Source: Scyliorhinus canicula (lineage: Eukaryota). From it: DNA of 64,000 bases. The stretch spans positions 85,267,982-85,331,981 of the forward strand of contig NC_052146.1 of assembly GCF_902713615.1 (NCBI RefSeq), in the 5' to 3' direction. A model generated the notes under the pieces. It ran no database searches, was not told the DNA's origin, and saw nothing but the letters and a program-made list of their open reading frames with translations. Position numbers and translations under genes: made by a program. This document shows, piece by piece, positions 6,535 through 25,290 of this stretch. Each line of letters starts with the position of its first letter. The stretch's first letter is position 1.

Positions 6535-9080
6535 TTTTTTTTATAAATGATTTTTATTGGGTTTTTGAACAAAGTATATTTACAGTTATGTACACAGAAT
6601 AATATATATATATATATAGAAGAGAAAAAACAATTTAAAAAAGACTGATATGATATTGTGCACTAGCTCAACAACAGCAACTCTGTACAGTTAGCAATAT
6701 TATTTTTAACAAATAAGTAGGCACCTATTTGGGGGGGGGGGGGGGGGGCGGGGACTGGGGAGGTACATATACATTTGGGTGTCGGAGAAACAATTACAGT
6801 AGTTATGTCCAATACAGAGAGGGCAATACGAGAATGGATCCGGTGTTGGTATTGTTACTTGCTTCTCCCGGACGGTTTTCACTGCCGTTGTCATCGCGCG
6901 TACACCTCCGCTTTGGCCGTTCGTCCCGTCTTTCGCTCGCATTTTCCTTGCCCTCTGCTTTTGCCAAGTTTTTTGTTGTTTCCCGTGCTCTCCTTCCGGC
7001 TATCATTCCCTTGCCCCCCCCCCCCCCCCCCCCCACCTCTCTGGTTCCCCTCTATTGTTCCCTGTCTCCTTCCTCTTCCCTTTTCTCCACCCCTCCCCCC
7101 TTCTGCCCCCCTTCCCCCCTACCCTTCTCCTTTGGTTCATCTTTCTTTTCTCTTAGGTTTAGCTGTTCCCCCCGGTCTATCCCTCCCTCTCACGCCTTGG
7201 CTACTTTCCCCTGATTCTTGGCTACCTGGCTATTCTTCTGCTTGTTCATTGGCCACAAACAGGTCCCGGAACAACTGGGTGAATGGCTCCCATGTTCTGA
7301 GGAAGCCGTCGTCCGACCCTCGGATGGCAATTTTCTCCATTTGGAGAGATTCTGAGAGGTCGGACAGCCAGTCTGCAGCTTTGGGTGGTGCTGCTGACCG
7401 CCAGCCAAACAGGATTCTACGGCGGGCGATCAGGGAGGCAAAAGAAAGGGCGTCCACCCTCCTCCCCAGGAATAGATCTGGCTGGTCTGATACCCCGAAG
7501 ACCGCCACTTTCGGGCATGGCTTCACCCTCACCCCCACCACTTTGGACATGGCCTCAAAGAAGGCTGTCCAGTACTCCACAAGTCTGGTGCAAGACCAGA
7601 ACATGTGGGCGTGGTTGGCCGGGCCTCCTTGGCACAATTCACGTCTATCCTCCACCTCTGGGAAGAATCTACTCATTCTAGTTTTTGTTAAGTGGGCTCT
7701 ATGGTGGGGGTATCTTAGTGTAGAGTAGGGGGTTGGAAAAGGTGTGAGAGAGGAAGATGGCTTTTGCACTATGTTTATATTTGTATGTACACGGTTTCTT
7801 CTGTTACTGTTATAAAACTATAAATACCTCAGTAAAATGTTTATTAAAAAAACGTGGGCTCTATGTACCACTTTTAGTTGCATCAGGTTGAGCCTTGCGT
7901 ACGTGGAGGTGGAGTTGACCCTATGCAGTGCTTCGCTCCAGAGTCCCCACCCTATTCCAATCCCCAGGTCTTCCTCCGATTTCTTTCTTGTTGCGTCCAG
8001 TACGGTGTCCGCCTTTCTACCAGTCGATCATACATGTCGCTACAGTTCCCTTTCTCTAGGATGCTTGCGTCCAGTAACTCTTCCAGTAATGTTTGTCGTG
8101 GCGGTTGTGGGTATATCCTTGTCTCCTTTCGTACAAAGCTTTTGAGTTGCAGGTACCTTAGCTTGTTCCCCCTGGCGAGCTGGAATTTCTCCGTCAGCTC
8201 GTCCAGTGTTGCGATCCTGCCGTCCGTATACAGGTCCCTTACTGTCAGTCCCTCCGTCCTGTTCCCACTTTTTGAAGGTGGGGTCAGTCAGCGCTGGTGT
8301 GAACCTATGATTGTTACAGATGGGAGCTATGTCCAAAATTTTGGTCAGGCCAAATTGCTGCCGTAGTTGATTCTGGGATTGGAGGGTGGCTATCACCACC
8401 GAGCTGCTGGAGTGTTTTTTGGGTGGGGATGGGAGTGTTGCCGTGGCGAGGACCCGGTGGGAGGTCCCCTTGCAGGAGGCCTCCTCCGCGCGCACCCACT
8501 CAGCTTCTGGCTCATTGATCCATCCCCTTATTCACTTGGTTGTCGCCGCCCAGAGGTAGAATTGTAGGTTTGGGGAGGGCTAGCTAGGTTTGGGGAGGGC
8601 TAGCCCCCCCCCCCCCCCCCTCCCCCCCCCCCCGGTCTTTGTTCTTTGTAAGATCTACTTTGGGATCTGAGCATCCCCCCCCCATATGAATGCCATGATT
8701 AGTTTGTCTAGTGCTTTGGAAAAGGCCTTGGGGATGTAGATCGGGATGGATCTAAGTAGGAAGAGGTACCTGGGCAGTACGTTCATTTTGATCGTCTGGA
8801 CTCTCCCCGCGAGGGAGAGTGGGAGCGTGTTCCATCTTTGCAGGTCCTTTTTTACTTCCTCTGTTCCTCTGTCAGACTGATGAGATTTCATTTGTGGATC
8901 CCTTTCCAGTCGTGGGCTATTTGAACACCCAGGTAGCGGAATTTGTGTCGGGCTTGTTTAAATGGCAGTCCCGTTAGTGCTGCCCCCCTACCTGTGGGTG
9001 TACCGGGAAGATCTCGCTATTGCTCATGTTGAGTTTGCTCGAGAAGGCGGCAAACTCTTTCAGGAGCATGATGATATTTC
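6535..9080 (-). mobile_element. 5'-truncated L1/Tx1-type LINE (ORF2 C-terminal region, long 3' UTR, poly(A))
   Basis: WNTLPLSLAGRVQTIKMNVLPRYLFL, LMQLKVVHRA and CQGGPANHAHMFWSC (C-terminal Cys/His region); 3' end AATAAAAATCATTTATAAAAAAAAA; internal deletions and frameshifts. Confidence 0.88.
7704..7852 (+). mobile_element. Short A-tailed retroposed fragment (probably another L1-type 3' end) inserted antisense into the L1
   Basis: Ends TGTTTATTAAAAAAA; flanked by 12-bp TSD GTGGGCTCTATG (7692-7703, 7854-7865). Confidence 0.75.
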
Positions 9081-10200: not shown

Positions 10201-11225
10201 GGGGCAGGATTCGTGGACTTCCACGACAGCAAGACTGGCGCCGAATCTGGACCGATTCAGCGACTGCGGAGGGGCTAGCACCGCCGCCACGTGGAACACA
10301 ATCAATTCCAACGACAATTGGTGTGGGATTTGCCGGGTCTGTGATTGATACTCGGGAGGCTGGAAAGCTGCAGCTGCACATACACATTACACTCCCTACA
10401 CGCTCCATCCCAGTCAACAAGATGGCACTGGTTGCGCTGGAGCGCGCTCATACGGCTGATGGGTCGGTTGGGTCCAGAGGGCACTCAGTGGGGTGGCCTG
10501 GGGAGACACCTATACGACCCGTAGCACTAAGTTGACAGTGGGCTGTCAACAACCTGTGCAGCTGCAGGGCTGCCTTTCTAACTGCGGCAATGGTGTTCCG
10601 TGCCCATCCACCACGACCCCACAGCCCGCCCCACTACTCCCCCCGACCCTGGTGGAAACCCCCCCCCACCCCGGCCAGCGGCACAACTGTCAGCAAACTA
10701 TGGCGATGTTGGACACTTTCTGTACTCCCTCTCGCTCCCTCAACAGCCACAACGCCGGTTTCACGATTTTTAAAAGCATAAGTGAACCCTGCCATCGGGA
10801 ACTCAGCACATAATAATAATAATCTTCAATTCGGTTTTTTCCAATTAAGAGGTAATTTAGCATGGCCAATCCGCTTAGCCCCCCAATCTTTGGCTGTGGG
10901 GGTGAAACCCACACAAGCACAGGAAGCATGTGCAAACCCCACACGGACAGTGACCTAGAGCCGGGATTGAACCTGGGACCTCAGCGCTGTGAGGCAGCAG
11001 GTCTCACCCACTGCACCACCGTGCTGCCTTATAATTAACATTGCAATATCAGAGGCAGTGCACCGGAGAATATCAGGTCAGGCCCGCTAATGTTATGCAA
11101 ACGGTATTTACTGTAGGTGCGTTCCGGACCACATCGATGTCGCTGTCAAGATGTCGGAGAATTGTGATTTGGTGACAAATTGGTGGCTGCCACGATTTTG
11201 GAGTCGGAACCGATTCTCTGCCCAA
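10201..11225. mobile_element. Degenerate GC-rich MITE / non-autonomous Harbinger-like element with nested V-SINE (10810-11030, -)
   Basis: Starts GGGGCAGGATTC; CpG-rich interior resembles the other MITEs; right boundary uncertain. Confidence 0.55.
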
Positions 11226-12259
11226 TTGCGTTTCCCAATTTCGGGGTCAGGCAACATGTTCTAAACCAAGAAGTCCAATGAAGAGTTATATGTCCATCTC
11301 ATGGAATGATAGTGTTATAACCCCCGCAAGACCCAGGGGGTTGACCGGATTAATCTCCACATGAGCCTTGTGGAGTAAGAGCTCCCCTGCTGAGGGGTGC
11401 AGGGGAAGGCTGGGGATAATTACCAGGCGGCAATGCTTTTGACTGTCTGTGGGGCACCCATCTTCAGCATCATAAAGAGGTTGATGTACCCCATCGCCCC
11501 GGACTGCAAGACATCCGAAGAATTAGTTGCACTCATGGCAATCCATTAAAATTTCAAGCTGTCAGAGGTACTGATTCAATAAGGCCAAGAGGACCCCATG
11601 GTAGTCCATTACCGAGTTTTTGGCGTGATTGTCCAAATTGGCAGTTTTGCGACTATGCGCATCCCTACCAAGTTGCTATGGGGCCGTCTTGTGTGTGGAA
11701 TTTTTTTAAATTAAGGGCAATTTAGCGTGGCCAATCCACCTGCCCTGCACATCTTTGGTTGTGGGGGTGAAACCCACATAGACACGGGAAGAATGTGCAA
11801 ACTCCACAAGCACAGTGACCCGGGGTGGGATCAAACCCAAGCTCTCTATGCTGTTAAACAGCAGTGCTAACCACTGCGCCACCGTGCCGTACTTGATATA
11901 AATAACATGGTGACCCGGGGAAGTTGCTGTTTGAGTTGTTACTGGACCTAAATAAGGTCGATGCGATCTCCCTCTCACAGGAGAGTACAGACAAAGTATT
12001 CCAGGAAATCCAGGAAATGCTGTTTACCGGGATATAGGTAAACAGCATAGGATGCCCCCATTCTGGCACAGAATGCCCCCTAGGGCTGGGAACCCGAGAC
12101 TCCACTCAGCCCGAACACCGCCGGGAACAGACCCATTAGTCAAGTGTCGCTGCAGCCAGGCGGGACACACCCCTGGAGTTGATCAAAGGCATTCCAAGGC
12201 GAGGCGGCACATGTGGCCAGCAGAATTGCCGGGATAAGAAACAGCAGGCCAGCCAGCAA

Positions 12260-12359
12260 TGTTATACATTTAACTGCTGTTGTATAAAGGTTCTGCTCCT
12301 TTTCCACAAACACGTTTATTTCACTTTAACAGACTCTGCACAAAACTCTAACATCACAT
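12260..12359 (-). repeat. 3' LTR remnant of the Copia element
   Basis: Aligns to 15655-15762 of the 5' LTR, then joins directly to RT coding sequence. Confidence 0.85.
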
Positions 12360-15300
12360 TTGTGGCTAATAGAGCCAAGAAGATCTTTAAAATAACCTTT
12401 CCTGCCATAGGTGAAATTACCCTCAAATCTAAGTTTTCTTCAAATCCCCTTGCCACAAGCCTGGCCTTTGCCTTATAAATTCCATCCGGGAGAACCTTTT
12501 CTGTGCAAATCCATCTGTGGGATAGAGCTCTTTGTCCCCAATCCGGTACTTCCGTGTATACCCCAAATTCACTCCAACTATGCAATTATTGCTGTTTGGC
12601 ATCTTTGATAACTTCTTCATCTAACTTATTGGAAGCCACCAAAATCTCACGTGCATGTGGACATCCACTCCTATTAGTATTTGTAGTCTTACTCATGTTC
12701 CGAGACCTTGATAAACTACATCCCCTCTCCCGCATGGTATCTCATTCTGTACTGCTACTGCTTGATCTTTCCCTTCTGCTGTGGGATGTCCTTTCAATAG
12801 TTCTCGACCTTTCCTGCGAACCTGTTCACTACCCGATGTACTATCCGAACTGGCCTGCGTTTCTGTACCCTCCATTTTTGAACTCTGTGTTCCCAATCCA
12901 TTGTCTTGACACCCTCCCCTGAATGCTGTACATTCGACCAATGTTTATACTTTCCAGTGGCCTTTCCTGCTCTACTAATAACAGTTGCATCCTGCCATTA
13001 ACTAGACCCTTCAGGCAAGTATGTCACTTTTGTAGTTGTTCTTTCGTAAAAATGGCCTGTTCTAAATCATCAGAAGTGTTGTGTTCCTCTACAGAAACCC
13101 TGTCTATATCAGTTAACTGGTCCACGTGCGTATCGGATTATCGTGGGTCCTTGTCATGTCTGTCTGCTCTGTCTAAATTTGAAAATTTGTAATCTCTACC
13201 CATTATCCTTGATGAATGTACCCTAACAGTTTGATTACCATGTTGCAAAATAATTGTTTTGCCATCTATGCCAATGATCTTCCCTGGGCCTTTCCATTCA
13301 TTAGAATTGTCTCTCTTATAGTATCTAATGTCTCCTTGCTGAAAAACGGTATTTGATGGCCGTACATATTATACTTCAAAGCTCTGCGAATTCTTTCAGA
13401 GACTTCTGCTTCCAAAAAAACTGTTCTACTGCTATGTAATGCATTTAAATGCTCAGCAAAGGCTGGTCATCCAAAATAGACGGAATTTTAGGATTTCTAC
13501 CAAACACTAATTGATAGGGACTATAGCCCCCAACCATCTGCAATTAATTCTTTGCATGTACCGCCCATGATAAAGCTGACTTTAGCTTGCAGTTTGGTCT
13601 ATCTGCCAAAGTTTTCCGGAGCATGTCATCTATTAACGCATGGATCTTTCACACACACCATTACTAAATGGGCTTTCTGCAGCTATATTCAGAACTGTGA
13701 TATTCACGTTTTCACACATATCCCAAAACTCACCATTAGCAAATTCTCCTCCATTGTCTGCAAGGAATTTTGCCGGTGGGCCCATTCCTGTCCCTATCCA
13801 TTTTTCCACGATTTGATCCAGAATTACTCTCTTTTCTTTACTTCGTACAATCGTTGATTGACTAAATCTGGTTGCTAAATCTACAAAATGCAAAATAAAT
13901 ATATTATTGGCTTTATCCCAGATCTTAAGGTCCATGGCCACAATGTCGTTATAATCCCTGGCCAAAGATAAGGTTACTATCGGTTGTGCTGGTGTCCTTC
14001 TATACTTCCTACAAACTTCACAACGATCACTAACCTATTCTATTAGCTTAGCATAGTCTTCATCCCTTACCCCTGCATCCTTTAATAAATTTTTCAGCCT
14101 CCGAGGAGACGGATGTGCAAATTGCCTATGCAGTTTTAATACAACAAACTTTTTCTCAGCTAAAGTCCCATTTTCAACTGCCATTAACACATCCTTAACA
14201 ACTGTACTTGAAATATTATTTGTCAGTAATGGAATACAATAGTGTCCTGATTGCGTAAATGATAAGTCCACCATCTTTCCAAAAACTGTTGCCTTATCGT
14301 GTTCCATATCCAGTTTCATGTGTGCTTTCTTCCTCGAAGGTCTTCCCAGAAGCAAAGGTATCTCACTTGATCTAACATCCGTGCTAATGAAATGATTCAT
14401 CCTGCAATATTGCAAGGGATCACCACTCTTTTCAGCGACTTCAGAGTATTATCATCCCCAAACCTGAAACCTGTGGAACTTTCAAATTCCTTAACCTTGT
14501 TACGATTTTCAGCATTCAAGGAGTCCAAGTAACATTTTAACCAGTCAATTTTGCACACAGTAGATGTGCAGCCACTGTCCAATACAGCACAGTTGAAGGA
14601 TTCTGCAACCAACACCCTCATTACCGGCTTAAAACTGCCTGTTAATAGGACAATGCCTTCTTTCTGATCACTATCTTTTTCCTCTTCTGACTCTTCCGTG
14701 TCATGTGTCCCTTCAAACACTCTATCATAACGAGTTGGACAGTTGAAAGCATAATGGTATTGAGAGTCACATCGAAAACATCGATTATCATGCCCCGTGC
14801 ATTTCTGGGGTTCATCGTCCTATTGTAGGTACTAAGTGGGTTTCTGTCTTCATAATTTCCGGGTCCCGATCTCCTTCTATAGTCTTGGAACCAGTTTTTA
14901 GCCGTACGATTTCGCCATCCTTTTAGTAGTGTATCTTCCATATTCTGCTTTATTGCAGGCTGACCAATTTGGGTCATCAGAGCCATCGGAATTGAATGTT
15001 TCCCCAGAAACTTTTTTAAAGCTTCTGTCATCTGATCGAATAAGGTATCCTCATCCACAACACTGAACTCCTGTCAAAATCAGGAGTCTATCCACGTTGC
15101 TCACTCGAGCACAGTCAAGTAATTTAAAGGCCAACATGGACTGTGGAAAATCCAGGTTGTGTTTCTGCAGCCTTTTATATAGTCTGCCAAATTCCATTAC
15201 ATAGTCTTCCATGGAGAAATCCTCTATTTTACGGAACCTATCAAAATCCGACCATGCTTCATACGCACTTAACGAGCCATCCTTTTCATATATCTTATCC

Positions 15301-15529
15301 AAATAACATAATAGAGTGTGCAGACCTTCGTCTGAGTCTAACTCTTTCAATTCCAGCTCAGAAAACACTTTGCTCCGGATTTTACTGTCATTAGGTAGAG
15401 AAAGAGCCATTGCCATACCTTGTTTTCTCTTTCCCAAGGTAGTTACCTTAGTCCACATAACTACTGCACATCTCCATTGGTCGTACGATCCCCTTTCAGA
15501 AAATAAGGCGGGTAGTCATATCCAGCCAT
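12360..15529 (-). pseudogene. Copia gag-pol polyprotein, frameshifted
   Basis: ATG at 15529 (MAGYDYPP). gag QGMAMALSLP..AFKLLD; zinc knuckle CFRCDSQYHYAFNC; protease AVLDSGCTSTVC; integrase LHRQFAHPS..CEVC, VAMDLK, ADNGGEF, SNGVCER, WKGPGKIIG; RT start ELHSWSEFGVY..KARLVARGFEE. Confidence 0.88.
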
Positions 15530-15634
15530 CTTTATCCTAGGTTCAGCCATATATCTTTGTTTTATTTTCTTCTCACTCACTCCTTCGTTTGGTCTGGAAA
15601 AGTTGTATCTTTCAACCCTTCACATTTGCACAGC

Positions 15635-15652
15635 AACCATCCTCTGCTACCA
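15635..15652 (-). other. Primer binding site complementary to initiator tRNA-Met
   Basis: Minus strand TGGTAGCAGAGGATGGTT is the complement of the vertebrate tRNA-iMet 3' end (AACCAUCCUCUGCUACCA), 2 nt from the LTR. Confidence 0.92.
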
Positions 15653-15654
15653 TT

Positions 15655-15872
15655 TATTATACGTGTGGCTGCTGTTGTATAAAGAGTCGAAGGTTTCGCT
15701 CTTTTTCCACAAACACCTTTAATTTACGTCAACAGACTCCGCACAAAACTCTATCATCACATCACCTGACACAAAGGCCACCTGAAGCCCCTTTACATAT
15801 CAGTGTCAATTATTGGATACTTAATATAAATGAGACAACTAATTGGAATGTCTCTTAACCCATTACGTAACA
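15655..15872 (-). repeat. 5' LTR of the Copia element (~218 bp)
   Basis: Begins TGTTACG on minus; adjoins the PBS; homologous to 12260-12359. Confidence 0.88.
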
Positions 15873-18840
15873 AGCAAACTCTCCACCCTACCTGAGGGAG
15901 ACGCCAGCCCAGGGCGCAGACACTCCACTTGGAACGACCTGATGACGAGGAGTGTATGCAATTGAATTGCATCACCATGAGTTACCCCATCAGGATTTGC
16001 GTCCAGGTGAACGCCCACCCGATAGGGATAGAGTTGGTCATGGGGGCCACAGTTTCAGTAATTGGGAGACAAACGTTCAAGAGAATCAAAACTGAAGTTC
16101 AATGGTTGAGTTTGTGGGATACCAAGTGAAGCTGGCGATCTATACAGGTTATCCCCTCATCATGCGGGTACGACGATGACGCCGGTAACTTATGGACACC
16201 AGTCCGTTAGGCTGCTGTTAATAACTGTGAAGGGCCCTGGACCAAATTTGCTGGGCCGTGATTGGCTACAGCGCCTCGGGAGGATTGGCAACAGATCTTC
16301 TGGATGGGCATCGGAGGACTCCACAAAATATTGGAGAAGTACGCTGAGGTTTTTCAGGAAGGCCAGGACAGAATTAAGGGAACTGTAGCCAAACCATATA
16401 TGGACCCTGAGGACCAGCCTAAGACCTTCCAGGCCTATCCAGTCTCCGACAGGTTGAGGATGAACTCAGCGGACTGGTATCATCCAGCGGGTACAGTTTG
16501 CTGATTGGGCAGCGCTAGTAGTCCCGGTACTAAAACCTGACAAAACAGTATGCCTGTGCAGTGATTATAAGTTGACCATCAACAAAGCTTCCTGTCTAGA
16601 CAGGTACCCAATGCCGTGGATAGAAGACCTATATGCAAAGTTAGCCAGAAGTCATTCCTTTTCCAAGCTTGACGTGAGCCATGCCTATCTCCAGTTGGAG
16701 CTGGATGCCGATTCAAGGCATTACGTAACCATTAATACCCACAGAGACCTCTACGAATACACAAGGCTGCTGTTTGGAGTGTCATCGGCTTGCACAATTT
16801 TCAGTGCATTATGGAGAACATCCTCAGAGGGCTACTGCGTGTTGCGGTCTACTTGGATGGTGTCCTGGTCATCGGAGCCACGGAATGAGAGCACCTGACA
16901 AACTGGAAGAAGTCGTTCACCAGTTTTCTGAGACAGCAATCGCCTCCAGAGGGGAAACTGCATTTTTTACATCAAGGAAGTTACATACTTCACATCATGT
17001 AGACCGGGGTGGACTACACCTGCTAGAGAAGAAGGTGCAGGCGATCAGACAAGCCCTCATTCCGGAAAACGCGACAGAGTTACGGTCACTCTAAAGTCTC
17101 GTAAGCTACTTCAGGAAATGTATTCCTGGCCTGGTGGCCATCCTCACCCCACTGCACTCAGAATGGGCGTGGACAGCACCTCAGGAGGAAGCTTTTGCCA
17201 GGGTGAAGCAGCAACTAATGTCGTCCGGATTATTGACACAATACAACCCCTCAAAGCCTCGTTTGGTGATGGCGATGCCTCGCCTTCCGGAATGGGAGCT
17301 GTATTGTCCCACCACATGGCTGATGGAAAAGAAAGGTCGATAGCATTTGTGTCAAGGACTTTGACCGCTGTGGAGCACAATAATGCCCAGATAGAAAAGG
17401 AAGGGATGGCCATCGAATTCGTGGTGAAGAAATGTCACCAGTATGTGCATGGGCGTTGAATCACCAGTGTGACGGACACCAAGCTATTGCTGGGGTTTTT
17501 TAAAGGGAGAAGGTGATCCCACCGATAGCATCCGCCAGGACTCAGCGATGGGCCCTGTTGCAAGGGGCATATGAATACACCTTCCAGCATCGCCCAGACA
17601 TGCAAATTGCTAATGCAGACGCATTGATGAGGCTTCCGCTGCCCACACGGCCCCGCCTCCACCAAGAGCTGCAAAGTCATTTCAACACTGCACTTTATGG
17701 ACACCTTGCTGGTCACCGCAGCCCAGATAATCAATTGGATGCAGAAAGAGTCTGTATTAGCGAATGTACGCCACATCATCTTACATGGGGGCCAGCAGGG
17801 GAAGCTGCCTGAAGAACTATGTGCCTTTGAAGTCAAAATGCTGAAGCCGAGTGTGGAAGGTGGCATCCTCCTGTGGGGGGCTTGTGTTGTGGTCCCAATC
17901 CAGGGCAGACTCACCATCCTTCAGGATCTGCACAAAGGACATCCAGAGGTGTCAAAAATAAAGATGCTAGCCCACAGCTATGTGTGGTGGCCCGGACTGG
18001 ATCGACAGGCCAGGCACAATCAAACTATCGGCCCTACAGTGCACTGCATGTCCGGAAGATCAGAAACTCCTGCCTGCTATCCCACTACATCCATGGGAAT
18101 GGACAGGCCGGCCTTGTGTGCATCTACATGCCGATTTCACCAGACCATTCCAAGGATCGATATTTCTTCTCATGGTTGGCTACCATTCCAAATGGCTGGA
18201 AGTCTATTGGATGCCGTCTATCACATTGAGGACTTCTGTTGAGAAACTCCAACTCTCCTTTAGCACCCACGGCATTCCAGAGGTGCCGGTCACAGATAAT
18301 GGCACTGCCTTCACCAGTGAAGCGATCAAGTGATTTACGAAGACAAAAGAGGTGCAATACATCCGCACAGCCCTGTTTCACCCTTCCACAAACAGGCTGT
18401 CCCTGCGGGTTGTGAGGACCTTCAAGCGGGATCTGAAGAAACAGAACACAGGGTCCATGGAGACATGACTGGCAAGATCCTTCTTCAACTATCGACTATT
18501 GCACATGCCGTGATAGGCACCGGCAGAACCGGCCACTCAGGACCCGCCTCAGCCTCACCTTCCCTGATATTGGCGGGAATGTATGACAGAGTCAGAACCA
18601 GCAGAGACAAAGCCAAGGCAGGCGGACGTGGACCAGGAGTTTCAAACCAGGAAACACAGTTACATCCGCAACTTCGGGGACGGTGCCTGATGGATTCCAG
18701 GGACAGTGGTATGGCACCCGGATCGGTTGCATATCAGGTGCAGACGCGAGAACAGACGGTGCGGAAACACCTTGACCACCCCAGGAGCAGGGGACCAACA
18801 TTCAGATACGCCCCACTGGAGGAACCGTCTTCTAGCCATG

Positions 18841-19068
18841 TTTTTTTTTTATAAATTTAGAGTACCCAATTATTTTTTCCAATTAAGGGGCAATTTTAGC
18901 GTGGCCATTCCACCTTCTCTGCACATTTTTGGGTTGTGGGGGCGAAACCCACGCAGACATGGGGAGAATGTGCAAACTCCACACGGACAGTGACCCAGAG
19001 CCGGGATCGAACCTGGGACCTCAGCGCAGTGAGACGGTTGTGCTAACCACTAGGCCACCGTGCTGCCC
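18841..19068 (-). mobile_element. Short A-tailed V-SINE within the Gypsy
   Basis: 14-bp TSD GTCTTCTAGCCATG on both sides. Another copy lies in gag at ~11700-11890. Confidence 0.9.
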
Positions 19069-19798
19069 TGTCTTCTAGCCATGTTGCCCAACACATGAAG
19101 GCCTGTGAGTGTCACTTTCTGGAGGCCCCAACGCAGAGATATGCGAGATCATTGACTCCGACTTGGAAATGGAGACCCAGGCATCTGAGACGTCCGACGG
19201 CGACCTGGCCAGGGATCAGTCAGCAGTGGGTTTCCCCGACACGGTATACATCTCCCTACCCAGCTCCGGAGCCATTGGAAGGAAAGCCGTGGGTGAAGAA
19301 GACGTCCTCTTGCTCCACCCTTTTCAGAGGGACTTACAGGGTTTGGAGGCGGGGACCCAGCAGCGGGATAGTCGAGCTGCAGAGTAGACCCAGCTGGGAC
19401 TGAGACTGGGACTGGGACTATTACTTGTAAATAATTTATCTTGGTAATAAATCGTTTGCTTTGACTCGCCTTTCTGGATCCTCTGTGACTACTAAAGGTA
19501 GCAATTTTGAAAAGCGTGGAGCATGAGCTAAATCTAATAGTGATTACAAGGACATCAAGATGTATTTTGCTTTTCTAAATTCACAATCGTGCTTTCAAAA
19601 TAGTGATTTAATAGTGATTGCACTTTAGCTCACCATCTTGAACAATTCAAATAATTCAATATATCCTACTGCATGTGGTGTCTGTCAGATTTCCAAGGGA
19701 GGTGTTATATGATTCCTGGGGTGGCACCTGTATGCTCATGTCTTACAGTTCACTCAGGAAGTCTGAATTGTTCGGGTAACATATACTTTCCATGCATG

Positions 19799-20045
19799 GG
19801 GGCAGCACGGTGGCGCAGTGGTTAGCACTGCTGCCTCACGACGCCGAGGACCCGGGCCACTGTCCGTGTGGAGTTTGCACATTCTCCCTGTGTCTGCGTG
19901 AATCTCACCCCCACAACCCAAAGATCTGCAGGGTAGGTGGATTGGTGACGCAAAATTGCCCCTTAATTGGAAAAAGAATTGGGTACTTTAAATTCATAAA
20001 GAATAAAATAAATTAATTAAAAAATTAAAAACAACAACAAAAAAA
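19799..20045 (+). mobile_element. Short A-tailed V-SINE
   Basis: 16-bp TSD ATACTTTCCATGCATG. Confidence 0.9.
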
Positions 20046-20849: not shown

Positions 20850-21368
20850 TTTAAAAAATAAATTTAGAGTACCCAATTATTTTTTTCCAATTAAGGGGCA
20901 ATTTAGCATGGCCAATTCACCTATCCTACACACATTTTTGGGTTGTGGGGGTGAGACCCACGCAGACATGGGGAGAATGTGCAAACTCCACATAATAATA
21001 TAATAATAATCTTTATTAGTGTCACAAGCAAGCTTACATTAACATTGCAATGAAGTTACTGTGAAAATCCCCTAGTCGCCAATCTCCGGCACCTGTTCGG
21101 GTACACTTTGGAGGAATTCTGAATGTCCAATTCACCTAACAAGCATGTCTTTCAGGACTTGTGGGAGGAAACTGGAATACCAGGAGTAAACCCACGCAAA
21201 CACAGGGAGAACGTGCAGACTCCACACAGACAGTGACCTAAACGGGAATCAAACCCAGATCCCTGGTGCTGTGAAGCAACTGTGCTACAGTGACCCGGGG
21301 CTGTGATCGAACACGGGTTCTCGGCGCTGTGAGGCAGCAGTGCTAACCACTGCGCTACCGTGCCGCCC
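20850..21368 (-). mobile_element. Short V-SINE with a Rex1-tail V-SINE (20993-21288) nested inside
   Basis: Outer copy is broken after CAAACTCCACA and resumes at AGTGACCCGGGG; flanks TGAACTAATCT(G/A)A; inner copy has an (ATT)n tail. Confidence 0.82.
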
Positions 21369-22029
21369 TGAACTAATCTAATTTAAGCATGCTACAATGA
21401 TAGAACCCATATCCTTGTCTAATTGAGCGGCTTCAAATTGTTGGCCTAGGCTTAGTAGTCAGCAGCAAGGTGACAGTATAGTTGCCCACCTCAAAGGATG
21501 CTACCCACAACAATACTGGTCTCTGTGGGTTCCTCCTTATTTGATGCCATTTGAATCTTGCACCAACCATCGGGGATCTCCAATGAGAAGTAACAATGAT
21601 GTCATCGAGCAGGCTAACCAGCTAACGACATTGAAGAATTCTCACAGGCAGGAAAGTAAAAGCCTGTTTTATTCTTTATCACTTAGTCATCTAACTGGGA
21701 ATGCACGCGTTAGATTAAGGTAGAAAATGAAATATTATAAACAAGCTTTAATTTTCTTTATTACTCCAAAACTCTATGGAATTTTAAACACAATCAAGAC
21801 ATTTGACATCCTACAAATATACAGTGGGCTGGATTTAATACAGCTTTCCACTTGGGACACATGATGGCCAGCCCTGCTTAGTCACAGGAGAGGCTGGCTG
21901 CATATCAGTCTCCTGACAGTGGGAAGATGAAGTTGAAAGCAGGAATGGGGCCATGGGGGAAACACACCAATTAAAATTGGGTTGTCATTTAGGTTCATTA
22001 TTGAACCCATCGAGATCAATTTTCTTTGA

Positions 22030-22579
22030 GGTGACAGTCAAGAAGGCAAATGCAATGTTAGCATTCATGTCAAGAGGACTAGAATACAAGACCAGGGAGG
22101 TACTTCTGAGGCTGTATAAGGCTCTCGTCAGACTCCATTTGGAATATTGTGAGCAGTTTTGGACCCCATATCTGAGGAAGGATGTGCTGGCCTTGGAAAG
22201 GGTCCAGAGGAGGTTCACAAGAATGATCCCTGGAATGAAGAACTTGTCGTATGAGGAATAGTTGAGGACTCTGGGTCTGTATTCATTGAAGTTTAGAAGG
22301 ATATGGGGGGATCTTATTGAAACTTACAGGATACTGCGAGGCCTGGATAGAGTGGACGTGGAGCGGATGTTTCCACTTGTAGGAGAAACTAGAACCAGAG
22401 GACACCATCTCAGACTAAAAGGACAATCCTTTAAAGCAGAGATGAGGAGTAAGTTGTTCAGCCAGAGGGTGGTGAATCTGTGGAACTCTTTGCCGCAGAA
22501 GGCTGTGGAGGCCAAATCACTGAGTGTCTTTAAGGCAGAGATCGATAGGTTCTTGATTAATATGGGGATCAGGGGTTAT
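22030..22579 (+). mobile_element. CR1 LINE 3' fragment (older), left part
   Basis: VKKANAMLAFMSRGLEYK..LYKALVRLHLEYCEQFW..RTRGH..WNSLP; one in-frame stop. Confidence 0.92.
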
Positions 22580-23780
22580 AAGAACATAAGAACATAAGAA
22601 CATAAGAACATAAGAACTAGGAGCAGGAGTAGGCCATCTGGCCCCTCGAGCCTGCTCCGCCATTCAATTAGATCATGGCTGATCTTTTGTGGACTCAGCT
22701 CCACTTTCCGGCCCGAACACCATAACCCTTAATCCCTTTATTCTTCAAAAAACTATCTATCTTTACCTTAAAAACATGTAATGAAGGAGCCTCAACTGCT
22801 TCACTGGGCAAGGAATTCCATAGATTCACAACCCTTTGGGTGAAGAAGTTCCTCCTAAACTCAGTCCTAAATCTACTTCCCCTTATTTTGAGGCTATGCC
22901 CCCTAGTTCTGCTGTCACCCGCCAGTGGAAACAACCTGCCCGCATCTATCCTATCTATTCCCTTCATAATTTTAAATGTTTCTATAAGATCCCCCCTCAT
23001 CCTTCTAAATTCCAACGAGTACAGTCCCAGTCTACTCAACCTCTCCTCATAATCCAACCCCTTCAGCTCTGGGATTAACCTAGTGAATCTCCTCTGCACA
23101 CCCTCCAGCGCCAGTACGTCCTTTCTCAAGTAAGGAGACCAAAACTGAACACAATACTCCAGGTGTGGCCGCACTAACACCTTATACAATTGCAACATAA
23201 CCTCCCTAGTCTTAAACTCCATCCCTCTAGCAATGAAGGACAAAATTCCATTTGCCTTTTTAATCACCTGTTGCACTTGTAAACCAACCTTCTGTGACTC
23301 ATGCACTAGCACACCCAAGTCTCTCTGCACAGCGGCATGCTTTAATATTTTATCGTTTAAATAATAATCCCGTTTGCTGTTATTCCTACCAAAATGGATA
23401 ACCTCACATTTGTCAACATTGTATTCCATCTGCCAGACCCTAGCCCATTCACTTAACCTATCCAAATCCCTCTGCAGACTTCCAGTATCCTCTGCACTTT
23501 TCGCTTTACCACTCATCTTAGTGTCATCTGCAAACTTGGACACATTGCCCTTGGTCCCCAACTCCAAATCATCTATGTAAATTGTGAACAATTGTGGGCC
23601 CAACACGGATCCCTGAGGGACACCACTAGCTACTGATTGCCAACCAGAGAAACACCCATTTATCCCAACTCTTTGCTTTCTATTAATTAACCAATCCTCT
23701 ATCCATGCTACTACTTTACCCTTAATGCCATGCATCTTTATCTTATGCAGCAACCTTTTGTGTGGCACCTTGTCAAAGGC
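22580..23780 (-). mobile_element. Young 5'-truncated CR1 LINE with uninterrupted RT ORF (22695-23768) and (TGTTCTTA)n tail
   Basis: 357 codons without a stop: GVPQGSVLGP, FADDTK, RPHLEYCVQFWSP; 3' UTR followed by 8-nt tandem tail. Confidence 0.95.
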
Positions 23781-23783
23781 GCT

Positions 23784-23892
23784 TGGGGAGAAGGCAGGAG
23801 AATGGGGATGAGAAAATATCAGCCATGATTGAATGGCGGAGTAGACTCAACGACCGAGTGGCCTAATTCTGCTCCTATGTCTTCTGGTCTTT
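23784..23892 (+). mobile_element. CR1 LINE 3' end (older), right part
   Basis: TGGGGAGAAGGCAGG continues ..ATCAGGGGTTAT of the left part; CR1-type 3' UTR ending CCTATGTCTT. Confidence 0.85.
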
Positions 23893-24661: not shown

Positions 24662-25290
24662 GGGGCAGCACGGTGGCACAGTGGTTAGCATTGCTGCCTA
24701 CGGCGCTGAGGACCTGGGTTCGAATCCCGGCCCTGGGTCACTGTCCGTGTGGAGTTTGCACATTCTCCCCGTGTCTGCGTGGGTTTCACCCCCACAACCC
24801 AAAGATGTGCAGGGTAGGTAGATTGGCCACTCTAAATTGCTCCTTAATTGGAAAAAATAATTGGGTACTCTAAATTTATTTTTTTTAAAAGGTGCTCATG
24901 CATATCTGTGCAGTGTTTTATCAAACTCATTAGCCTATTTAAAATAAATAGTCTGGCGCCAATGACCCAGGTTCATTTCTGGCCCTGGGTCACTGTTTGT
25001 GTGGAGTTTGCACATTCTCCCTATGTCTACGTGGGTCTCGTCCCCACTACCCAAAGATGTGCAGGTTAGGTGGATTGGCCACACTAAATTGCCCCTTAAA
25101 TGGGGAAAAAATAATATAAATAGTGACTTAATAATAATAATCTTTATTGTCACAGTATACTTACATTAACAATGAAGTTACTGTGAAAATCACCCCGTCG
25201 CCACATTCCGGCGCCTGTTCGGGTACATAGAGGGAGAATTCAGAATGTCCAAATGACCTAACAGCACATCTTTCGGGGCTTGTGTGGAGC
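24662..25290. mobile_element. SINE cluster: two short V-SINEs (+) and a Rex1-tail SINE fragment (-)
   Basis: 24662-24890 with TSD AAGGTGCTCATGCAT; 24955-25120; 25130-25290. Confidence 0.8.

Follow-up and report, generated by a model that had tools for sequence, protein, structure and literature searches.

The window analysed here, a stretch of 64,000 nucleotides from the Scyliorhinus canicula genome, holds a Copia retrotransposon inserted in a Gypsy element. A preliminary description made from the sequence alone had presented this retrotransposon as a fairly recent, possibly uncatalogued GalEa-type element and as a candidate for aquatic horizontal transfer. The locus raises the question of which clade the element belongs to, how old it is and how its family came to reside in a shark genome. 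At the level of the clade the idea of an uncatalogued family is not supported, since the parts of a published survey that were available to us (PMC11889832) list 8 Copia clusters for S. canicula (719 copies), of which 7 are GalEa, and 210 copies with 3 GalEa clusters for Carcharodon carcharias. The same parts report Copia copies in the thousands for squamates and some amphibians, so the premise that Copia elements are scarce in vertebrates stands in part and does not hold for these groups. The main text of PMC7070016 mentions neither Copia nor sharks. The presence of GalEa elements in sharks is already known and the locus is ordinary; being one dead copy among many, it is unimportant in itself. 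A copy with a single remnant LTR such as this one would likely escape the LTRharvest screen of PMC11889832. The family is material for two questions, namely whether marine GalEa elements cross phyla and what role is played by a conserved second barrel in the integrase tail.

Anatomy of the copy and its nesting in a Gypsy element

The Copia element runs on the minus strand, beginning at 15872 and ending at 12260 (3,613 nt), in the order gag-protease-integrase-RT, which confirms on that strand the integrase-before-RT arrangement first described. Its 5' LTR (15655..15872, minus strand, 218 nt) starts with TGT and ends with TA, where most sister LTRs end with CA, and the best sister LTRs are 92-94% identical to it. 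The length of 218 bp initially given for the LTR applies to this one; the other is a remnant of 100 nt (12260..12359, minus strand) that keeps the CA end and is fused directly to the RT. An AGCAA target site duplication (TSD) lies on the outer side of each, at 15873..15877 for the 5' LTR and at 12255..12259 for the remnant, and the primer binding site (PBS; 15635..15652, minus strand) is found 2 nt past the 5' LTR. The TSD had been called exact and the PBS perfect, and both are: the TSD is exact over 5 bp, and the PBS pairs at 18 of 18 positions with the 3' end, CCA included, of tRNA-Met(CAT) genes in the host's own genome. That 5 nt should agree by accident at the two LTR ends has odds of about 1 in 1,000. 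The integrase was matched at 150 of the 150 places scored among 7,849 first-look candidates (at 85-91%, 100% being the copy itself), counts for the family being lower bounds (at least 150 sisters) or unscored candidates and not copy numbers. Together, these two results exclude chance.

Read along the minus strand, the gag region (14600..15550, lower limit approximate) is broken by frame changes and contains a C2C4H4C zinc knuckle (14780-14739); it is followed by the protease active-site motif DSGC (14568..14579), which GalEa1 likewise has. The integrase comprises an H-X4-H-X30-C-X2-C zinc finger with an in-frame stop inside (14011..14130), a D(57)D(35)E core (13645..13935), a C-terminal WKGP module (13180..13365, limits approximate), predicted to be an SH3-like barrel from a model of sister L012, and a second conserved module of the tail, a predicted small beta-barrel that is broken here (12872..13039, limits approximate). 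An N-terminal piece of the RT follows (12360..12648), with KARLVA at 12468-12451, and is cut by a deletion. LHRQFAHPS, DLK..DNGGEF, WKGP and KARLVARGFEE, the motifs on which the preliminary description drew, are all present. On the window element Pfam gave rve at E 7.5e-8 and RVT_2 at E 3.9e-4, the latter below the cut-off. The LTR, the TSD and the order PR-INT-RT-RH are those of Ty1/Copia elements, the RNase H being found in sisters only.

Both flanks consist of Gypsy sequence, with RVT_1, RNase H, H2C2 and rve on the plus strand. The gag side lies at 11300..12254, with an approximate left limit and a short repeat interrupting it at about 11701-11894, and the pol side at 15878..18840, with an approximate right limit and with a protease region, RT (RVT_1), RNase H and integrase (H2C2, rve) that are all broken. 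The claimed insertion inside a Gypsy element was substantiated by sister Gypsy copies in which the site is empty: in 5 of the 9 uninterrupted sisters the two flanks can be aligned as far as the junction and meet there after removal of one TSD copy, 3 others align over only part of the left flank, and 1 not at all. Gypsy copies are 72-78% alike and Copia copies 86-91%, and the host Gypsy is therefore older than the Copia insert. A second organism (B), not necessarily a shark, contains 37% of the words that make up a sister copy. A 467-nt contig of organism B matches the Gypsy flank with 30 differences and may hint at an orthologous locus; among the pieces listed, none bridges an insertion junction. 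Overall, we consider it very likely that the element is a dead copy, with an internal deletion, of a Ty1/Copia family of high copy number, itself likely GalEa, lying reversed inside an older Gypsy element.

Decay of the copy and age of its family

The deletion junction (12359..12360, minus strand) marks a loss of about 1.5 kb that took the rest of the RT, the RNase H, the PPT and ~110-118 nt from the start of the 3' LTR. Sisters with two LTRs are mostly about 4.8-5.3 kb long and have a PPT, and the RT-RNase H part missing here was present in 31 of the 40 sister loci fetched. With up to 2 mismatches allowed, the junction had 1 match in the genome, and the deletion is therefore private; no microhomology is evident at it beyond a few letters. 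Comparison with the natural frames of relatives reveals no fewer than 9 frame changes and 5 in-frame stops in the window copy, where no open stretch exceeds 154 aa. It is dead and old and encodes nothing functional.

Long open stretches had been taken as a sign that the copy was fairly recent, and the PBS and TSD, both perfect, could be read in the same way, as could one sister with 99.2% LTR identity, which indicates that part of the family is younger. The copy might also have transposed as a deleted, non-autonomous derivative. Youth or transposition in deleted form is nevertheless very improbable in view of the frame changes and stops, of closest sisters that are only 87-91% identical internally, and of a deletion that removes both the PPT and U3. 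A non-autonomous deleted subfamily was rejected on the ground that the junction is single in the genome. The open stretches themselves (133-154 aa here) are short compared with those of sisters, which reach 1,009 aa in the RVT_2 set and 1,077 aa in the integrase set; none of the scored places holds a full gag-pol frame, which in intact relatives measures 1,400-1,500 aa. The reading as an old, dead copy is the one we retain.

Dating the copy by its own LTR pair was also rejected. The remnant and the 5' LTR share 85 of 100 bases and differ further by an 8-nt gap (K2P 0.17), and the remnant has a linked three-site non-CpG haplotype that is absent from the 5' LTR and common to 6 of 27 sister LTRs, a count biased by the retrieval of half of these LTRs with the remnant as query. 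Since the shared haplotype is in the remnant only, we infer two templates, and the two LTRs probably come from different ones. Because the pair looks chimeric, dating by it was dropped; its distance overstates the age of the copy. At loci picked by integrase, LTR pairs were 94.3-99.2% identical (8 of 20 loci), and in the LTR subfamily of the window copy their median identity was 93.9% (78.8-95.4%; K2P median 0.064; 10 of 20 loci). If one applies the rate given for the epaulette shark in the available part of PMC10587355, 7e-10 per site per generation, the LTR divergence amounts to 4-5e7 generations, a crude figure with a rate from another species, and this excludes a recent origin. LTR activity is described as declining in the catshark in the part of PMC11979771 at hand.

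An exact 5-bp TSD was seen in 4 of 10 two-LTR sisters and also at 3 solo LTRs. Among seven sisters with long frames, a choice that biases the result, dN/dS was about 0.4-0.5 between subfamilies and 0.54-1.2 among the closest pairs (outlier 2.9), a pattern that fits master lineages under selection whose copies evolve neutrally. A scan for RVT_2 gave 1,736 candidates, and the 150 that were scored, which do not make a full census, all reached 93-114 bits and resembled the GalEa-like family. Other Copia clades were looked for among these 150 and none was found.

The first variant of the host tRNA-Met(CAT) gave 48 pattern hits, with genes confirmed by ARAGORN run on 3 of them, and a second tRNA-Met variant gave 34, with genes confirmed at 4 of the 6 loci tested. 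At base 12 of the PBS, the 29 distinct sites divide into 14 with G and 15 with A, none having C, and both PBS forms are present in both LTR length classes. The two PBS variants correspond to the two host tRNA-Met variants. Recopying of the PBS from the tRNA primer is established retroelement biology, and a base 12 that follows the host tRNAs is consistent with it; the match would be an elegant trace of tRNA priming left in the genome.

The copy probably arose as follows. Its parent would have produced from the 5' LTR a single gag-pol transcript leading to a virus-like particle, in which the minus strand would have been primed by the host initiator tRNA-Met at the 18-nt PBS, with both host variants likely used in the family, and the plus strand at a PPT such as that seen in sisters. 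A DDE integrase would then have inserted the product with a 5-bp duplication, the duplication itself being observed. The differing LTR templates may reflect a strand transfer from one co-packaged RNA to another, or gene conversion at a later time. Following insertion, the copy likely underwent neutral decay together with the private loss of ~1.5 kb, an observed deletion whose timing would belong to this stage.

Probable GalEa membership and the integrase tail

The GalEa-like Copia character initially proposed is supported by motifs and by an RVT_2-type RT. The motifs of six metazoan GalEa elements have been tabulated (PMC5445492 Additional file 5). Sister frames P0001 and P0002 carry DSGC, H4H30C2C, D..D(35)E, KARLVA, DIKAAF, HVDD, TRPDV, SDAS and SDCFTK; KARLVA is found in the window copy itself and the remaining RT/RNase H motifs come from sister P0001. 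The family displays these metazoan GalEa characters: C2C4H4C in gag and D(T/S)(G/A)C in the protease, HX4HX30CX2C and DD(35)E in the integrase, KARLVA, D(I/V)K(A/S/T)A(F/Y) and (H/Y)VDD in the RT, and TRPD(I/V), SDAS and an ADxxTK-type ending, here SDCFTK, in the RNase H. Its LTRs are of the TGT...CA type and fall within the ~130-310 nt typical of metazoan GalEa elements, with a 5-bp TSD and a total length of ~5 kb, and a PBS complementary to the 3' end of tRNA-Met comes after the 5' LTR. The H4H30C2C zinc finger is as in CoRex1 (available part of PMC3587641), and GalEa elements are common in teleosts according to the parts of PMC3587641 and PMC5941688 at hand. Both the zinc-finger spacing H4H30C2C and the W.GP motif occur in 69 of 69 full-length relatives. 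Branch-2 Copia elements (Hydra, CoMol, CoMar, Mtanga and others) have a WHxRLGH zinc finger and a GKGY-type integrase tail, motifs seen in 0 of the 69 full-length relatives and in neither P0001 nor P0002.

The 12-mer TGGTAGCAGAGC is the strictly conserved PBS of six metazoan GalEa elements according to the available part of PMC5445492, and all 29 shark sites match it at 11 of 12 bases, base 12 being G or A. The literal 12-mer is a descriptive trait, while the clade is defined by placement in a tree with labelled references. As this 12-mer is unmatched and the FastTree and IQ-TREE trees contain relatives only, we file the family as GalEa-like; no labelled GalEa or other Copia reference was among the 240 protein matches listed, and the PDB sequences found were solely integrases of retroviral, Ty3 and transposase type. 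On its motifs and the published survey, the family very likely belongs to the GalEa clade of Ty1/Copia (branch 1). Assignment to a subclade of GalEa by protease and RT motifs was rejected, as these motifs vary too freely.

Gmr1-like Gypsy elements also have the integrase before the RT (available part of PMC3587641), and the WKGP module resembles the GPY/F module, which the part of PMC2774666 at hand treats as absent from Ty1/Copia integrases, so the element might be taken for a Gmr1-like Gypsy with a GPY/F-type tail. However, the RT of sister P0001 matches RVT_2 (E 1.1e-29) with no RVT_1 match, whereas the flanking Gypsy matches RVT_1, and KARLVA, HVDD and TRPDV are Copia/GalEa motifs. Judged by the RT family, the Gmr1-like reading is refuted, its probability being next to nil.

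After the core, the integrase tail consists of the WKGP module and then the second conserved module of ~60 residues. The RAGK motif of the second module occurs in 47 of 69 relatives with a strict pattern and in 61 of 71 with a loose one. AlphaFold2 predicted both modules as confident small beta-barrels with a disordered linker between them. The first barrel is matched alike by Tudor, KOW and retroviral integrase C-terminal domains (Z 6-8), and matches to tandem Tudor domains reflect the presence of two barrels, with TM-scores of ~0.25. The second barrel aligned with RimP (Z 7.3, rmsd 2.6, 69 aligned), with the RDM15 Tudor domain (Z 6.6, rmsd 2.3, 56 aligned) and with Sm-like folds too, matches within the range of common arrangement that suggest a generic small beta-barrel. 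This barrel has no Pfam family, its Atlas matches were all below 0.8 and Foldseek returned no match at E 0.001. The idea that the second barrel might steer insertion by reading chromatin or nucleic acid, as a GalEa counterpart of the chromovirus chromodomain, has a low probability. In the chromatin-reader check on the two predicted barrels, Tudor, KOW, Sm-like, RimP and retroviral integrase CTD matches were tied at Z 6-8. Our literature search, outside which lay most subscription papers, Repbase, Dfam and GyDB, found no description of this barrel.

Origin of the family and comparison with known elements

Long inheritance of the family within sharks is likely. Its nearest named relatives are crustacean and not fish, which does nothing to favour plain vertical descent. 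The family could instead have reached the shark lineage by an old horizontal transfer from some marine invertebrate, for instance a malacostracan crustacean, and have expanded there. The best of 2,068 protein matches is a cluster with krill (Meganyctiphanes), at 64-65% in RT/RNase H, while krill and porcelain crab are only 57-58% alike in that region. FastTree (122 rows) joined shark, krill and two further rows with SH 0.977, and IQ-TREE, run on 35 of these 122 rows, gave a 22-row clade (100/97) with shark and both named crustaceans but without Mytilus and Clytia. Of the 5 Copia-positive sharks listed in the available part of PMC11889832, only 2 have a high Copia copy number, and no copies are reported for sawfish or elephant shark; the survey itself raises marine horizontal transfer as a possibility, not as shown. 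However, the sister link between shark and krill is an open fork in the IQ-TREE tree, gag and integrase are only 44-52% alike with the krill cluster, and only four rows of the trees are named (krill, porcelain crab, Clytia and Mytilus), none of them from a fish or another shark. DIKAAF and HVDD are moreover the RT motifs of the teleost elements Olco1 and Zeco1 (PMC5445492 Additional file 5), whose subclade also includes a mollusc and a hemichordate according to the part of PMC3587641 at hand; ancient paralogy therefore explains the pattern equally well. We accordingly regard an old transfer as unlikely, and give as little credence to the fuller scenario in which the family would have crossed phyla from a planktonic crustacean and then spread to thousands of copies primed by two tRNA-Met variants. 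No description of a shark-crustacean transfer was found in the literature search, which had the same scope as that for the second barrel.

Recent transfer between species was rejected, as the run search found near-identical DNA in two organisms only, which shared 0.36-0.49 of a sister copy's words; among the matches listed, no RNA contained them.

The GalEa clusters published for S. canicula and C. carcharias (available part of PMC11889832) are like the window family in their GalEa type, their high copy number and the large size of the shark genomes that carry them; GalEa is the sole Copia clade listed for them there, and the likeness is drawn at clade level. The Copia proteins of Meganyctiphanes norvegica have the same motif set, at the identities given above and with sister status unsupported, and those of Petrolisthes manimaculis have the same motif set at 59% in RT/RNase H. 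CoDi-A Copia elements and chromoviruses likewise have an extra small domain beyond the integrase core, as described in the part of PMC2774666 at hand; the shark module differs from theirs in having no Pfam match and in being a generic barrel (best Z 7.3) of predicted fold only. GalEa1, CoRex1/2, Cico1, Zeco1 and Olco1 are, in the parts of the sources available, similar to the shark family in size (~5 kb), in short TGT..CA LTRs, a 5-bp TSD and a tRNA-Met PBS, and in C2C4H4C, DSGC, H4H30C2C, D(35)E, KARLVA, DIKAAF, HVDD, TRPDV and SDAS. Unlike these named elements, the window copy is deleted and dead. The shark family also departs from the metazoan GalEa table in its D-D spacing (57 versus 49-54), in the end of its RNase H (SDCFTK versus ADCLTK) and, as far as the available part of the source goes, in PBS base 12, which is G or A in the shark family and C in the metazoan elements.

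Primer binding sites and host tRNA genes

Base 12 of the primer binding site was found in two forms, G in 14 and A in 15 of the 29 sites compared (window 15635-15652 and sites at L011-L030 and L077-L096 elsewhere in the genome). These correspond to two variants of the host tRNA-Met(CAT) gene, which gave 48 and 34 pattern hits (tRNA loci examined: L031-L033 and L109-L113). Many of these hits lie in clusters on contigs C27 and C31.

LTRs and sister copies

Though its TSD is perfect, the studied copy carries LTRs of different subfamily haplotypes (12260-12359 versus 15655-15762). The LTR pair of the sister copy L077 is likewise highly dissimilar (78.8% identity) but, unlike the studied copy, L077 has no matching TSD. 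By length, the LTRs at L011-L030 form two groups, one of about 216-219 nt and one of 242-249 nt; with boundaries set by script, L012 and L024 apparently have one LTR of each group apiece. Amongst the 28 LTR loci examined, three to five are solo LTRs of the Copia family, three with an exact TSD (L054, L067 and L072) and two with one mismatch (L073 and L076). We also observed insertions of 130-700 nt within the element in L013 (5608-5757), L016, L017, L020, L021, L024 and L026, and far larger internal insertions in L019.

Other repeats of the window

One type of short interspersed repeat, which we take to be a shark tRNA-derived SINE, is present in six copies on both strands (10836-11030, 11701-11894, 18851-19070, 19799-19997, 20858-20992 and 24662-24884), and one copy breaks up the Gypsy gag region. 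Two LINE-type reverse transcriptase remnants, 22695-23846 (minus strand; RVT_1, E 2e-19) and 21917-22597 (plus strand), face each other. Several minus-strand frames of 100-195 aa at 7230-8957 resemble a further decayed LINE; none of the three frames tested gave a Pfam hit.

Predicted second barrel of the integrase tail

The integrase tail probably contains a second small beta-barrel (window 12872-13039; L012:5012-5245), to which no Pfam family matched. This predicted module is conserved in the studied family and the majority of its relatives, the proteins P0007 and P0009 being examples of relatives without it.
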